Shown: piece by piece, positions 10,326 to 13,830 of the stretch | How positions within the stretch are numbered: position 1 is the stretch's first letter | Layout: every line of letters begins with the position of its first letter | IMG/VR virus record: IMGVR_UViG_3300021185_003522 | Location: 1 to 64,000 of that record | Source: a virus | Reading direction: 5' to 3' (one strand) | Length of the DNA stretch: 64,000 nucleotides | Translations under genes and position numbers: made by a program | Notes under the pieces: generated by a model | The model's database searches: none | Seen by the model: only the letters and a program-made list of their open reading frames with translations | Told to the model about the DNA's origin: nothing

Positions 10326-10402
10326 GGACTGTTAGCTCAGCTGGATAGAGCATCTGACTACGAATCAGAAGGTCGGGAGTTCGAATCTCTCACAGTTCAC
10401 CA
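10326..10402 (+). tRNA. tRNA-Arg(ACG)
   Basis: Cloverleaf: D-arm GCTCAGCTGGATAGAGC, anticodon arm TCTGA-CTACGAA-TCAGA, GTTCGAATC T-loop, encoded CCA. Confidence 0.96.
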
Positions 10403-10407
10403 AACAC

Positions 10408-10483
<76 letters not shown>

Positions 10484-11338: not shown

Positions 11339-11836
11339 GTGTATAGAGTTACTGGCTATTGGCGTGATACAAAAATTGTACAATATTTTTACAATAGATT
11401 TGATGCAATTGATTTCAAAGACATAGTTGATGCTAATTATCCTTTAAATGTAACATTTGAAAAAGGAGTATATCCAGTGAGAGAATGGATAGTAAGCAGT
11501 TGGAATATAATTATGGATGACCGAAGAAATCCACTAAGTGCTATTCCAGATACCAACGTTAGACATATGGTTATGCAGGTACTTGCATGGATGTGGTGTA
11601 TTATTTTTAGCATGAGCTTGGGCAGTATTACAGTATTTGCATATACCGCAGTAGCACACACATTATTAATTGCAGGAATTGTTGCAACAGTTGTAATATT
11701 CGAAACTGCTAAACGCAAGCCAGGTTTCTTTTTAGATACCTTATACCACACACCAAGCAGAAGCAGAGGCTACATGTGGGTAAATGGCAAAAAAATTAAA
11801 CTAGATAAAAATGATCCAGGAGGGGAACATGAATAA
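11339..11836 (+). CDS. hypothetical membrane protein
   Basis: 165 aa with two TM-like segments (QVLAWMWCIIF..., LLIAGIVATVVIF). Confidence 0.7.
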   Translation: MYRVTGYWRDTKIVQYFYNRFDAIDFKDIVDANYPLNVTFEKGVYPVREWIVSSWNIIMDDRRNPLSAIPDTNVRHMVMQVLAWMWCIIFSMSLGSITVFAYTAVAHTLLIAGIVATVVIFETAKRKPGFFLDTLYHTPSRSRGYMWVNGKKIKLDKNDPGGEHE

Positions 11837-12275
11837 GATAGTAATTGGTACCATTGTAGCGGCAATTTTAGTTGCTGTTTTCTTTCAACAGGCACGTGCT
11901 GATAGTGTAAATGCACATATACAAGACCATTACAAAAGTGTTGTGCAACAAAAGCCACACAACCAACAGGTGTGTAGTGAAGTATATGTTCCTAATAGAA
12001 ATACTGTTGGTCCTGACAATATGTTATCAGGTGCAATTATTGGTGGTATAATCGGAAACAATGTTACTAAAAACTTACCAGATGGCGGTACCGCCGGTGC
12101 TATCATTGGAGGACTACTAGGCTTGCAAAATGAACAGAACGCAGGTGGCAACTATCAAACTAGATGCACTACACGTACTTCATATACTGAAACACAAAGC
12201 ACAGTGTATTCGCATAGTACTATTACATTCACAGATAACAACGGTGTAAGACGTAAGTTAAGATTTGTAAAATAA
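11829..12275 (+). CDS. glycine-zipper (2TM) exported protein
   Basis: Signal peptide plus GAIIGGIIGN...TAGAIIGGLLG. Confidence 0.75.
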   Translation: MNKIVIGTIVAAILVAVFFQQARADSVNAHIQDHYKSVVQQKPHNQQVCSEVYVPNRNTVGPDNMLSGAIIGGIIGNNVTKNLPDGGTAGAIIGGLLGLQNEQNAGGNYQTRCTTRTSYTETQSTVYSHSTITFTDNNGVRRKLRFVK

Positions 12276-12289
12276 TATGCAAATAAAGG

Positions 12290-12337
12290 TTGACAGACAC
12301 AATATGTTGTGTTACTATTAAGTATAAAGTTAGAAAA
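12290..12337 (+). promoter_or_regulatory. sigma70-type promoter with AGTTAGAAAA box
   Basis: TTGACA(12290)-17-TACTAT(12313); AAGTTAGAAAA at 12327-12337. Confidence 0.7.
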
Positions 12338-12352
12338 TGAAAGGACTTTAAT

Positions 12353-12568
12353 ATGGAAAAAGTAAAATATATTGTCAAAGGCTTAGGTGCAGTTCTTGCA
12401 GGTGTAGGCTTAATGTTAGCACTAGGATATGGTTTAGTTGCAATTGGTAAACTATTAGGCTTAGAAGCAGAACATGTTACAGGTGGTGTTGTTGTTCTTA
12501 TAGCACTTGGTATGATGGTGTTTTGGTTATCAGAAGATTATGAGCTTAAAAAACTTAAAGACAAGTAA
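12353..12568 (+). CDS. small two-TM membrane protein
   Basis: 71 aa, two hydrophobic helices, AAGGA RBS. Confidence 0.7.
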   Translation: MEKVKYIVKGLGAVLAGVGLMLALGYGLVAIGKLLGLEAEHVTGGVVVLIALGMMVFWLSEDYELKKLKDK

Positions 12569-12574
12569 ACTGAA

Positions 12575-12776
12575 TTACAATGCAGAGTGTGTGAATGGTA
12601 ATTAGTGAAATATTTGCAACGGTGTTGCAAGGATTATTACAGCCTAACTGCAAAGAGCACGGGGGCCATAGCCTCTATTAGATATGCATGGTGGGCCTGG
12701 TCGGCGGTGAAACTCAGCACTGCCCGTTTAGATCGTGAGAGGGTCCTTAAACGCGATGCAGTACTCTGTATTGTAA
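12575..12776 (+). ncRNA. putative structured ncRNA of unknown family (~200 nt)
   Basis: 15-bp closing helix (12575-12589 with 12762-12776, two G-U pairs) enclosing several hairpins; GC-richer than its flanks. Confidence 0.55.
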
Positions 12777-12790
12777 CACAAGGAGATAAA

Positions 12791-12997
12791 ATGTACTTAG
12801 AAAACAGAGATACAAAGTATAAAAAAGTCGGCAACAAACACTATGTCGAGTTTTACGAGGACAACACGATGATAGGTGTGATTGATTATAGCAAGCACAG
12901 TATGCATTATGTTGAAGATGCTGTGAACAACTTTCGCAGTGGATTAATGAAAACAGAAACAATAAAAGGATATGATATCAATGGCAAGAATCAGTAA
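12791..12997 (+). CDS. hypothetical protein
   Basis: AGGAG RBS before ATG 12791; the upstream part of track ORF 12605 overlaps the structured RNA. Confidence 0.7.
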   Translation: MYLENRDTKYKKVGNKHYVEFYEDNTMIGVIDYSKHSMHYVEDAVNNFRSGLMKTETIKGYDINGKNQ

Positions 12998-13247
12998 TAC
13001 CAAAGGAATAAAAGCAACCGGCGGAAGCCAGTTTGAACTAATAATGGCTGCTTCTGGACGTGCTAGAAGTTATAGTGCTGATAATCAGCCTCTAACGCCT
13101 CATTTTAATAAAAGAGGAATGACTGCTCTTAGAGAAATCGAACAAGGCTTAGTTGCATATGATGATATCAAAGAAATGATGATAAACAAAAATCAGACTG
13201 TTAGACCTAAAGAAGAAACAGAAGCAGATTCTATTTTAGATATATAA
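12981..13247 (+). CDS. rpoZ: RNA polymerase omega subunit
   Basis: MARIS...SQFELIMAASGRAR...TALREIEQG matches omega MARVT...NRFELVLxAAxRAR...VALREI. Confidence 0.8.
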   Translation: MARISNTKGIKATGGSQFELIMAASGRARSYSADNQPLTPHFNKRGMTALREIEQGLVAYDDIKEMMINKNQTVRPKEETEADSILDI

Positions 13248-13263
13248 GGTAAAGGAGGCTTAG

Positions 13264-13830
13264 ATGAAAGCATTATTAATACTGTTAGCTCTACTTTGGA
13301 GCACCTCCGCTTTTGCAAATAAAGGAATAACAATATGCCACGGCCCGTTTGCATTATGTGCCGCTAGTGCTTGTGAACCAACCGGCGGAAGAATAACAAA
13401 CCAAAACGGTGATTCATTTCCAGAAGTAAAATGCACATGTCCGATAGTCTATGGCGATAATGTAGCAGATCTTAATGCAGGTAATATGACTTCATGTGAG
13501 CCAACAGATGACAAGCATGTGTGGAGCACATTTTGGCCACGAACCAACTATCCTCGGCAACAAAATGACTTCTCACACTCAGACGAACTTATGAAAGGCA
13601 ATGTTGTTGAATGTCCTGCTAATCTCAAACAAGGACATGCCGCATCAAATTGTTTTTCATGGAACTGTGAGATAGACAGGAATGGATTGGCCATCTGTTC
13701 TTGCCCAATGGGTCAAGAGCCGCCTGAAACAGACTTTCTGATACAAAGTACAGACACCAGCACAGATCGTTGCTTTCAGCATCCTGTGAGTCTGCCCTTG
13801 GTTGCAGAATTTTTTTGGACTAAAAAATAA
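13264..13830 (+). CDS. secreted cysteine-rich protein
   Basis: AGGAGG RBS, signal peptide ending AFA, 12 Cys. Confidence 0.75.
   Translation: MKALLILLALLWSTSAFANKGITICHGPFALCAASACEPTGGRITNQNGDSFPEVKCTCPIVYGDNVADLNAGNMTSCEPTDDKHVWSTFWPRTNYPRQQNDFSHSDELMKGNVVECPANLKQGHAASNCFSWNCEIDRNGLAICSCPMGQEPPETDFLIQSTDTSTDRCFQHPVSLPLVAEFFWTKK

Follow-up and report, generated by a model that had tools for sequence, protein, structure and literature searches.

Between a stop codon and a ribosome-binding site upstream of a phage gene for an omega-like (RpoZ) subunit of RNA polymerase, the window analysed here (the whole stretch of 64,000 nucleotides, positions 1 to 64,000 of IMG/VR virus record IMGVR_UViG_3300021185_003522) contains about 200 nt which an earlier note, made from the sequence alone, had read as a multi-stem non-coding RNA on the + strand. 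The locus raises two questions, whether this segment is a structured RNA and what such an RNA would do at this place. The coordinates agree with a gap filled by the element: the stop TAA of a 71-aa ORF (12566-12568) lies 6 nt before the closing helix, P1, and an AGGAG (12781-12785) follows, with the next ATG at 12791. The features around the element are these:

12290..12318, + strand: sigma-70-type promoter-like site (TTGACA, 17 nt, TACTAT), with 10 of 12 consensus matches
12353..12568, + strand: 71-aa ORF, predicted membrane protein, between promoter and RNA; optional
12575..12776, + strand: structured RNA, subtype A, 202 nt, from folding, GC content, relatives and covariation
12781..12785, + strand: ribosome-binding site AGGAG, 5 nt behind P1, from sequence
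12791..12997, + strand: 68-aa ORF, one of at least seven different first ORFs behind the RNA
12981..13247, + strand: phage omega-like (RpoZ) gene; the ATG at 12981 is the start conserved in relatives

The element is a GC-rich island (GC 0.47-0.49 against 0.29-0.39 around it) with a minimum free energy of -70 kcal/mol. Its folding z-score is -2.64 on the + strand and -0.95 on the - strand, and none of 200 shuffled sequences folded as well on the + strand, as against 35 of 200 on the - strand. The terminal helix taken alone is not more than chance would provide, because the 64-kb window contains 52 comparable inverted repeats (at least 14 nt, within 260 nt, only Watson-Crick pairs being counted). 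The whole element, on the other hand, is more than chance, as seen from the shuffles, the GC island and the covariation described below. We are highly confident that 12575-12776 (+) is a genuine member of a structured RNA family, and the proposal of a multi-stem non-coding RNA of ~200 nt on the + strand is borne out by the fold, the covariation and the lack of a conserved reading frame.

Of 80 omega-anchored marine metagenome loci, 57 have a relative upstream of the omega-like (rpoZ) gene (20 of the 23 loci without a match have 424 nt or less upstream), as have 10 of 16 omega loci on viral contigs, one further copy being cut at a contig end. The relatives form two subtypes, A (180-217 nt) and B (229-238 nt). 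Model R1 gives the window element, one of the five sequences used to build it, 197.3 bits, and relatives outside the build 26-214 bits. Genomes with the RNA have one copy each and belong to a clade of uncultured T4-like giant phages from the sea which carry a T4-type capsid gene; single copies were found in G000, in G001 (complete, 328 kb) and in G002. In searches that were mostly omega-anchored, all members lie on the coding strand upstream of the phage rpoZ-like gene. Within subtype A the nucleotide identity of the RNA is 0.77-0.84, compared with 0.70-0.77 for the neighbouring protein gene.

One lineage (G003 and L016-L019) keeps omega and lacks the RNA; omega therefore does not need it. A model search with filters off on L005, L013 and L016-L019 gave hairpin-level scores only (12.8 bits at most). 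At the same place, L016-L018 have a lone 12-bp P1-like hairpin with the same GCAU/AUGC flanks, in which one U-A to U-G change keeps the pair; since the hairpin stands there alone, the stem has a use of its own. Two pattern scans of viral contigs were also made. The first, with 17 letters from the conserved 3' part, returned 15 stretches, eight of them on contigs already known through omega; the other seven (L029, L030, L031, L035, L037, L038 and L040) were rejected by eye because they are without P1 or any other element. The second, with 14 letters, returned at least 118 stretches, and none of the 77 new loci among the matches listed matched model R1. A blastn search (distant mode) of 12250-13300 against 50,697 phage records found no match.

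Covariation among the relatives is strong. Over 48 distinct sequences, standard pairs occupy 96.5% of the pair cells, compared with 39-49% after the partners have been slid. Both sides have changed in 24 of the 40 pairs, and none of 500 shuffles reaches this level. MAFFT followed by RNAalifold on 20 sequences independently finds helices P1, P3, P5, P5a and P6, and 16 of its 37 pairs show compensation. A mutual-information analysis of 37 subtype-A rows was kept as a lead only, because a few clades dominate it. Two readings without any RNA can practically be dismissed, one in which the segment extends the 68-aa ORF at its N-terminus (as ORF 12605-12997) and one in which it is an inverted repeat due to chance. 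A GTG-initiated frame is indeed open in the window from 12605 into that ORF, and inverted repeats of comparable size are common, but all three frames are interrupted by stops in 42 of the 48 relatives, lengths vary over 180-238 nt by non-multiples of 3, a different ORF follows the RNA in many relatives, and the changes in the helices are compensatory. ORF 12605 is thus not conserved as a protein.

In the fold derived from this comparison the 14-bp P1 is stacked on the 6-bp P3; P2 is a side hairpin that varies, and there are two three-way junctions with near-invariant joining strands, the inner one formed by P3, P4 and P5/P6. The parts of the fold in the window are:

12575..12588, + strand: P1, 5' strand, pairing with 12763-12776 (14 bp); 94.6% of cells paired
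12589..12646, + strand: J1/2, hairpin P2 and J2/3, of lineage-dependent length and sequence
12647..12652, + strand: P3, 5' strand, pairing with 12757-12762 and directly stacked on P1; 100% paired
12665..12692, + strand: P4 arm (12665-12669/12688-12692 with the extension 12671-12672/12686-12687), from covariation
12693..12746, + strand: P5, P5a, P6 and the conserved strand 12725-12736, from covariation and de novo recovery
12747..12756, + strand: joining strand J5/3, beginning UUAAAC, from conservation over 48 distinct sequences

Changes on both sides affect 7 of the 14 pairs of P1, a helix of 14-18 bp across the family, and 4 of the 6 pairs of P3, which was also recovered de novo. In the first part of P4, 88.3% of cells are paired and both sides have changed in 3 of 5 pairs, and the 2-bp extension of this helix is 100% paired with both pairs so changed; the tip of P4 is variable, and two extra hairpins are found there in subtype B. 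P5 (12693-12698/12741-12746), P5a (12701-12702/12737-12738) and the hairpin P6 (12703-12709/12718-12724), which has a conserved 8-nt loop, are 100% paired, with 5 of 8 pairs (P5 and P5a) and 5 of 7 pairs (P6) changed on both sides. In the segment from J1/2 to J2/3 identity to relatives is only ~0.5, against ~0.8 for the core, although the 3' end of J2/3 is a conserved CCUA. Across the family 28 positions are invariant and a further 25 are conserved at 90% or more; unpaired positions make up 24 of the 53. Among unpaired stretches conservation is highest, in both subtypes, in J5/3, in which U173, U174, A175 and A176 are invariant in 48 of 48 sequences and A177 and C178 are conserved in at least 90%.

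Most of the individual stems that the earlier note had described can be placed on this fold, some with amendments. The 15-bp terminal helix is present in the window (12575-12589/12762-12776) and its two G-U pairs are compatible with the + strand only, but the comparison retains 14 pairs: U12762, the fifteenth partner, pairs instead with A12647 in the covarying 6-bp helix P3. The stem GGCGGTG/CACTGCC is real and corresponds to P6. Where one GGCC-flanked stem had been proposed, comparison shows two helices that covary, 12665-12669/12688-12692 and 12693-12698/12741-12746. The repeat TTGCAAC-GGT-GTTGCAA (12614-12630) exists as the tip of P2, inside a hairpin that varies among lineages. CGTTTA/TAAACG can be formed in the window, but comparison lends it no support: three lineages have uncompensated changes, as judged by eye, and its 5' half is missing, again by eye, from subtype B, so that we rejected the pairing CGUUUA/UAAACG. 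Also rejected were a pairing of J3/4 with the CNCU stretch (uncompensated changes, by eye) and a pseudoknot GGG/CNC within the P4 arm (75% paired, with no changes on both sides).

The setting of the RNA varies. Upstream of it, depending on the locus, lies a promoter, the 71-aa ORF (absent in L088/L096/L098 and L014-type loci) or a Gly-zipper gene; behind it come at least seven different ORFs, or omega itself, at a distance to omega of 34 to 1257 nt. The gene downstream, which had been called rpoZ, is a true omega homolog (phage-protein profile against the solved E. coli RpoZ, E 3e-13); a pattern scan for bacterial relatives of the phage omega found none. PHROGs and Pfam were uninformative on the neighbours apart from omega and a Gly-zipper. 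A tRNA-Arg and a tRNA-Thr lie at 10326-10483, 2.1 kb upstream, with ORFs between. In the window the RNA begins 257 nt downstream of the promoter-like site, behind the ORF; in three other lineages promoter-like sites end 4, 10 or 11 nt before P1. Judging from promoter consensus and position, host sigma-70 RNA polymerase would make the RNA early, and the RNA would then be the very 5' end of the operon transcript or, as in the window, stand behind a small ORF.

The AGGAG of the window is predicted to be mostly unpaired with P1 formed. The same prediction was obtained for 12 relatives, out of 15 folded, after setting aside L014, L111 and L104, in which the start codon was misassigned; in subtype A the ribosome-binding site lies 1-15 nt behind P1. 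A consensus scan of the + strand detected no terminator-like site between 12319 and 13790 (the Cys-rich gene downstream ends at 13830). With no terminator in the early unit, no switch is therefore seen.

For RNA libraries the region is listed as present in 24 runs from 14 studies, and we compared the contigs of four runs, from four studies, with the window, finding the region in them; ends, strand and level cannot be read from such contigs, and DNA may be included. Contigs run from the 71-aa ORF into the RNA (12413-12761) and from the RNA through the 68-aa ORF and omega (12572-13302), and one contig joins 12375 to 12572, omitting the 71-aa ORF and placing the junction at the 5' edge of the RNA. 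Contigs crossing the edges of the RNA fit plain co-transcription as well as excision. In three runs contigs end at 12593-12603, where the variable P2 starts, which may break assemblies; neither these ends nor the stretches that lack cover are informative.

Our preferred reading, which we hold only tentatively, is that the element would be a constitutively folded, self-contained early RNA module binding a macromolecule, and not a switch. The 20-bp stack of P1 and P3 would shield the core from its flanks, whatever these are, serving as a protecting or processing stem, so that the core would persist as a stable early RNA and present its conserved junction strands to a macromolecular partner. Host RNA polymerase, joined by the phage omega that the same transcript encodes, would be the leading candidate for this partner. 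The modularity of the element favours such a module, since the neighbours on both sides vary and the distance to omega varies; the absent terminator and the ribosome-binding site predicted to be open argue against a switch. Also in its favour are the promoter-like sites just before P1 in three lineages, the P1-like hairpin of L016-L018, the conserved unpaired nucleotides and the presence of the region in RNA libraries of four studies. Against the module stands the fact that omega dispenses with the RNA in G003 and L016-L019. Synteny between related phages could also account for the link to omega, and most searches were omega-anchored. In subtype A the placing of the ribosome-binding site, 1-15 nt behind P1, would suit a role in cis just as well. 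As candidate antisense targets, complements of the conserved single strands occur at about chance level in the 125-kb genome. Long duplexes that enclose structured RNA within a longer transcript are known from rRNA-operon processing stems and T7 early-mRNA RNase III sites; here the duplex is interrupted on the 5' strand by the P2 branch, and cleavage is hypothetical.

A cis role is the most serious alternative, even if we consider it rather unlikely. As a leader or intercistronic element, the fold would protect the mRNA from 5'-end-dependent decay or set up the adjoining ribosome-binding site, resulting in higher expression of the following ORFs and no role in trans. P1 starting a few nt from the predicted transcription start in three lineages, the ribosome-binding site close behind P1 and predicted unpaired, the bare P1-like hairpin at the same place in L016-L018 and the lack of a terminator behind the RNA would all agree with it. 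However, a stabilising stem needs no interior of ~170 nt with 24 conserved unpaired positions and four covarying inner helices, and in the window the RNA is not 5'-terminal but follows an ORF whose stop lies 6 nt before P1.

For the macromolecule-binding module, the partner could be specified further. In an unlikely version, the element would be a candidate RNA-polymerase-directed early RNA whose invariant junction strands dock on host RNA polymerase, nascent or released, possibly at or beside the site where phage omega replaces the host subunit. Early transcription would thereby be reprogrammed, for example towards termination resistance or blindness to the stringent response. If true, this would be a new class of polymerase-binding RNA, with a fold unrelated to 6S or put. 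A search for AsiA found nothing above the cut-off.

The put RNAs of phage HK022 are cis-acting antiterminators, each of two short stem-loops, located just behind early promoters. A similar function here, with the nascent RNA binding its own polymerase for read-through of early-operon terminators, also appears unlikely, and a little more so. As with put, an early phage unit has a structured RNA at its start, read in the coding direction and lacking an expression platform, and RNA polymerase may plausibly be involved. The promoter-proximal position is independent of the ORFs that follow, and the gene of a polymerase subunit is constantly nearby. In position, the promoter-like sites lie 4-11 nt before P1 in three lineages and 257 nt before it in the window. 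But the present RNA is ~200 nt long with two three-way junctions, differing in size and fold from put; the RNA is dispensable in the G003 lineage; and the terminator-free stretch (to 13790 by the consensus scan) reaches from the RNA to about the end of the Cys-rich gene at 13830, so there would be nothing obvious to override.

We regard as improbable a riboswitch, in which a ligand-binding aptamer would control the operon. A 5' leader with conserved nucleotides at its junctions and several covarying, GC-rich helices is what one would look for in an aptamer, and the cobalamin riboswitch (RF00174) in particular resembles the element in size, in being a GC-rich multi-helix leader and in a GGUGAAAC-like stretch, here in P6. 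Yet neither RF00174 nor any other Rfam riboswitch model matched 12250-13000 or 15 relatives, even with E-values up to 10 admitted. There is no expression platform, neither a terminator nor a pairing that hides the ribosome-binding site; P1, of 14-18 bp stacked on 6 more, is probably too stable to depend on a ligand; and the downstream genes are a mosaic of small ORFs without known function.

Small ribozymes are common in phage DNA, and the intercistronic or leader position in a phage operon, with an invariant core at the junctions, would suit an element that cuts the polycistronic early transcript, whether as a new self-cleaving ribozyme or through dedicated processing. This is nevertheless doubtful in the extreme, as no known ribozyme family matches and both edges of the RNA are spanned by RNA-library contigs (possibly DNA or uncut RNA). 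More improbable still is a 6S-like mimic of open promoter DNA sequestering the sigma-70 holoenzyme, about which the earlier note had speculated. Length (~200 nt), paired 5' and 3' ends in a long closing helix, the nearby rpoZ-like gene and a possible link to RNA polymerase are shared with 6S RNA, but the fold is branched, with hairpins P2, P4 and P6 and two three-way junctions, where 6S RNA is rod-like, its long helices flanking a large central bubble. Unlike in 6S RNA, sequence conservation is high in the present family, and no 6S model matched (the window at the gathering score; 12250-13000 and 15 relatives at E up to 10). The fold thus contradicts the speculation.

Among other known RNAs, species 1 and 2 of T4 (rnaC, rnaD) are likewise small structured RNAs of unknown function in T4-type phages. 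Model R1 with filters off reached at best 10.3 bits on the T4 region, which is hairpin level, and rnaC has a tRNA-like arm and lies inside a tRNA cluster, whereas the present RNA is 2.1 kb from two tRNAs. Y RNA/YrlA was rejected, as TROVE (Ro) is absent from G000-G003 (control genomes match) and there is no Rfam match; a retron msr-msd RNA was rejected too, RVT_1 being absent from G000-G003.

A search of the window against Rfam 15 at the gathering score matched no family, and neither did searches of 12250-13000 and of 15 relatives that admitted E-values up to 10, which places the RNA family outside that release. The exclusion of tmRNA, RNase P, SRP and tRNA signatures agrees with this and with the lack of ARAGORN matches.

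Almost nothing is known of the early functions by which the T4-like giant phages of the sea, which are abundant and uncultured, take over their hosts. Here an ornate RNA, about as conserved as the neighbouring protein gene and predicted to be made at the start of infection, always lies near a phage copy of omega, a gene which is itself unusual for phages. Binding to polymerase or to some other host factor would make the RNA a novel takeover device based on RNA. Should it be no more than a stabilising leader, it would still be a family lacking in Rfam, left blank or miscalled as an ORF by annotation pipelines. For experiments, ready-made mutants exist in the two subtypes, in natural deletion variants and in the relic with P1 alone.

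In titles and the openings of abstracts we found no paper on this RNA family or on a phage omega gene. PMC10690425 describes 8,495 structured RNAs of 29-151 nt, predicted from IMG/VR and named DNAVirus_X, and parts of the present element may be among them.

The element lies between two small ORFs, upstream of an omega-like gene (the phage rpoZ homolog), in the following order (window positions):

10326-10483, +, adjacent tRNA-Arg (ACG) and tRNA-Thr (TGT), 2.1 kb upstream of the RNA
11811-12275, +, Gly-zipper membrane protein
12290-12318, +, promoter-like site before the 71-aa ORF
12566-12568, +, stop TAA of the 71-aa ORF
12575-12776, +, structured RNA, subtype A
12781-12785, +, AGGAG (ribosome-binding site)
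12791, +, ATG of the 68-aa ORF
12981-13247, +, omega-like (RpoZ) ORF, profile match to solved E. coli RpoZ
13264-13830, +, Cys-rich secreted protein

It forms a GC island, with a GC content of 0.47-0.49 against 0.29-0.39 in both flanks. The + strand folds with an MFE of -70 kcal/mol (shuffle mean -58.2, sd 4.5, z -2.64), a value equalled by none of 200 shuffles; for the - strand z was -0.95 and 35 of 200 shuffles were equally good. The 15-bp terminal helix described in the earlier note is present in the sequence; by itself it is unremarkable, because the 64-kb window holds 52 inverted repeats of at least 14 nt within 260 nt.

The fold was assessed by comparison among relatives. In a model-based alignment of 53 matches, 48 of them distinct, standard pairs occupied 96.5% of pair cells, against 39-49% when the partners were slid by 1-3 columns. 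The covariation that the earlier note had proposed to look for among homologs was found: both sides had changed in 24 of 40 pairs (shuffle mean 15.8), and the observed score was reached by 0 of 500 shuffles. Since such an alignment leans to its model, MAFFT and RNAalifold were also run on 20 subtype-A sequences, and without guidance they found P1, P3, P5, P5a and P6; compensation was seen in 16 of 37 pairs. The helices are:

12575-12588 with 12763-12776, +, P1, closing helix, 14 bp
within 12589-12646, +, P2, variable hairpin
12647-12652 with 12757-12762, +, P3, 3' strand contiguous with P1
12665-12669 with 12688-12692, +, P4
12671-12672 with 12686-12687, +, P4 extension, 100% paired, both pairs compensated
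12693-12698 with 12741-12746, +, P5
12701-12702 with 12737-12738, +, P5a
12703-12709 with 12718-12724, +, P6

In P1, A-U to G-U changes are frequent, and these are compatible with the + strand only. Invariant positions number 28 (48/48 sequences), and another 25 are conserved in 90% or more. Of these 53 positions 24 are unpaired, chiefly those of the UUAAAC that follows P5 and of the segment joining P6 to P5a. The CGTTTA/TAAACG stem of the earlier note is not retained among relatives, and the comparison gives no support to a pseudoknot proposed inside P4. All three + frames contain stops in 42 of 48 relatives and the RNA lengths differ by non-multiples of three; ORF 12605, whose conservation as protein would have spoken for coding, is therefore an accident of the window sequence, and an ORF extension or a chance inverted repeat has a negligible probability. 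The element is a real, non-coding, strand-specific, covarying fold.

Relatives fall into subtype A (37 distinct rows, 180-217 nt), to which the window element belongs, and subtype B (11 distinct rows, 229-238 nt), which carries additional hairpins behind P6 and at the tip of P4, with four flanking pairs lengthening P1. One subtype-A RNA of 217 nt (locus L084, 38-254) carries an extra GC-rich hairpin of ~24 nt at the P4 tip, where subtype B has its extra hairpins. Another variant (L012, 99-259) has lost hairpin P6 and a portion of the conserved strand that follows it through a 31-nt internal deletion; it may represent a copy in decay or a variant created by assembly.

Rfam 15 returned two tRNAs and nothing else on the window; with E values up to 10 allowed, the element itself had no match, nor did the RNA in 15 diverse relatives; ARAGORN found only the two tRNAs in the window. 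No description of the family was found in the literature searched, and T4 rnaC and rnaD are unrelated to it. Among the short phage RNA candidates catalogued in PMC10690425 there could be fragments of the element.

The phage gene at 12981-13247 is a true omega homolog on profile evidence: nine phage sequences combined in a profile matched solved E. coli RpoZ over residues 1-78 (E 3e-13), and single sequences score just below or above curated cut-offs. The literature searched yielded no account of omega genes in phages, and a pattern scan found no bacterial relative with the MTALREIE motif. The window belongs to a virus record of 125 kb with an estimated completeness of 36%. A major capsid gene of T4 type (E about 1e-98) is found in it and in three relatives of 300-328 kb; the source is therefore an uncultured T4-like giant phage. 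No annotated phage resembled the locus (blastn, 50,697 records).

Omega-like homologs occur in 16 viral loci, retrieved with the protein as anchor, and in no fewer than 80 contigs from marine metagenomes (L004-L019, L042-L121). Among the viral loci the RNA was found in L004 and L006-L012 (nhmmer) and in L014 and L015 (R1, a covariance model built from five RNA sequences, E 4e-11); in L013 a contig edge cuts its 3' end, and L005 and L016-L019 lack it. Among the marine metagenome loci it was detected at E <=0.01 in 57 of 80, always on the omega strand and upstream of omega; of the 23 loci without a match, 20 offer no more than 424 nt upstream, and the remaining three 543, 665 and 936 nt. A scan not anchored on omega (17-letter RNA pattern) returned only contigs already listed for omega plus 7 unrelated stretches. 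Searches of whole virus records gave one copy each in G000, G001 (complete) and G002, and none in G003 (86% complete) or G004. In L005 the frame of the omega-like match (1068-1331 of a 6.8-kb contig) is interrupted by a stop codon, and the 1,067 nt upstream contain no RNA; the copy may be broken or the match shifted.

Comparison of flanks in 38 relatives gave the following upstream neighbours, with distances counted from the end of the neighbour to P1:

L088, L096, L098: TTGACA-17-TATAAT, 4 nt upstream of P1
L111 group of subtype B: TTGACA-17-TATACT, 11 nt upstream of P1
L119 group of subtype B: TTGCTT-17-TATACT, 10 nt upstream of P1
the window element and most of subtype A: 71-aa ORF, stop codon 5-8 nt upstream of P1
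L014: Gly-zipper gene, directly adjoining the RNA

In the first three groups these motifs would have transcription begin at the closing helix or immediately upstream of it. A TTGACA also lies within the last codons of the 71-aa ORF in L087, L089, L111 and related loci; in the L111 group it is the first hexamer of the promoter-like site, with TATACT 17 nt on, and in L087 and L089 (subtype A) it has no second hexamer. The RNA-omega distance is 34-35 nt (5 loci), 200-214 (36), 400-420 (7), 805-847 (8) or 1257 (1), and the Gly-zipper and Cys-rich genes flanking the RNA-omega block are syntenic in L014. The place of the RNA in an early sigma-70-type unit near phage omega is fixed, and its flanks change freely.

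In L016-L018 a 12-bp P1-like hairpin stands alone at the RNA's place, between a similar promoter and omega (2941-2967 in L016 and L017, about 2881-2911 in L018). It has the same GCAU/AUGC flanks as P1 and a single U-A to U-G difference that keeps the pair; L019 has neither RNA nor hairpin. Either the core was deleted, leaving the bare hairpin as a relic, or the hairpin is ancestral and the core was inserted into it.

No switch features were seen in the RNA's setting, and this, with the conserved junction strands and the long stem, leads us to favour, tentatively, a self-contained early module that persists and binds a macromolecule. The junction strands argue for a specific partner, to which they would be offered; the long closing stack and its persistence as a lone hairpin in one lineage argue for a use of the stem itself, which would protect or process the RNA while the core remains as the early module. 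The leading candidate for this partner, as yet unproven, is RNA polymerase together with phage omega. Contigs bridging both element edges, the keeping of omega without RNA in G003, and a genome in which no antisense targets stand out count against a self-contained module, and the link between RNA and omega may be synteny alone.

A plain cis-acting leader, stabilising the message or aiding translation, is rather unlikely. In its favour, subtype A has a ribosome-binding site 1-15 nt behind the RNA, and with P1 formed both this site and the start codon are predicted to be largely unpaired. The RNA is followed either directly by omega or by one of seven or more small ORFs unrelated to each other. 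A put-like antiterminator is improbable, no terminator-like sites having been found on the + strand from the promoter to 13790; a riboswitch appears somewhat less probable again, and a new ribozyme is very doubtful. The 6S-like RNA suggested in the earlier note is contradicted by the fold, which makes a 6S mimic highly improbable. Y-RNA and retron readings were removed because Ro and reverse transcriptase are absent from G000-G003.

Public runs listed with part of 12250-13300 number 24, from 14 studies, and 11 are recorded as RNA. Contigs of the four runs examined, from four studies, cover the region and indicate presence only, as ends, strand and level are not readable from them and DNA may be included. 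One spans 12413-12761 and another, from a relative, 12572-13302. A further RNA-library contig joins 12375 to 12572, leaving out 196 nt that contain almost all of the 71-aa ORF; this naturally occurring variant has its break 3 nt upstream of the RNA.
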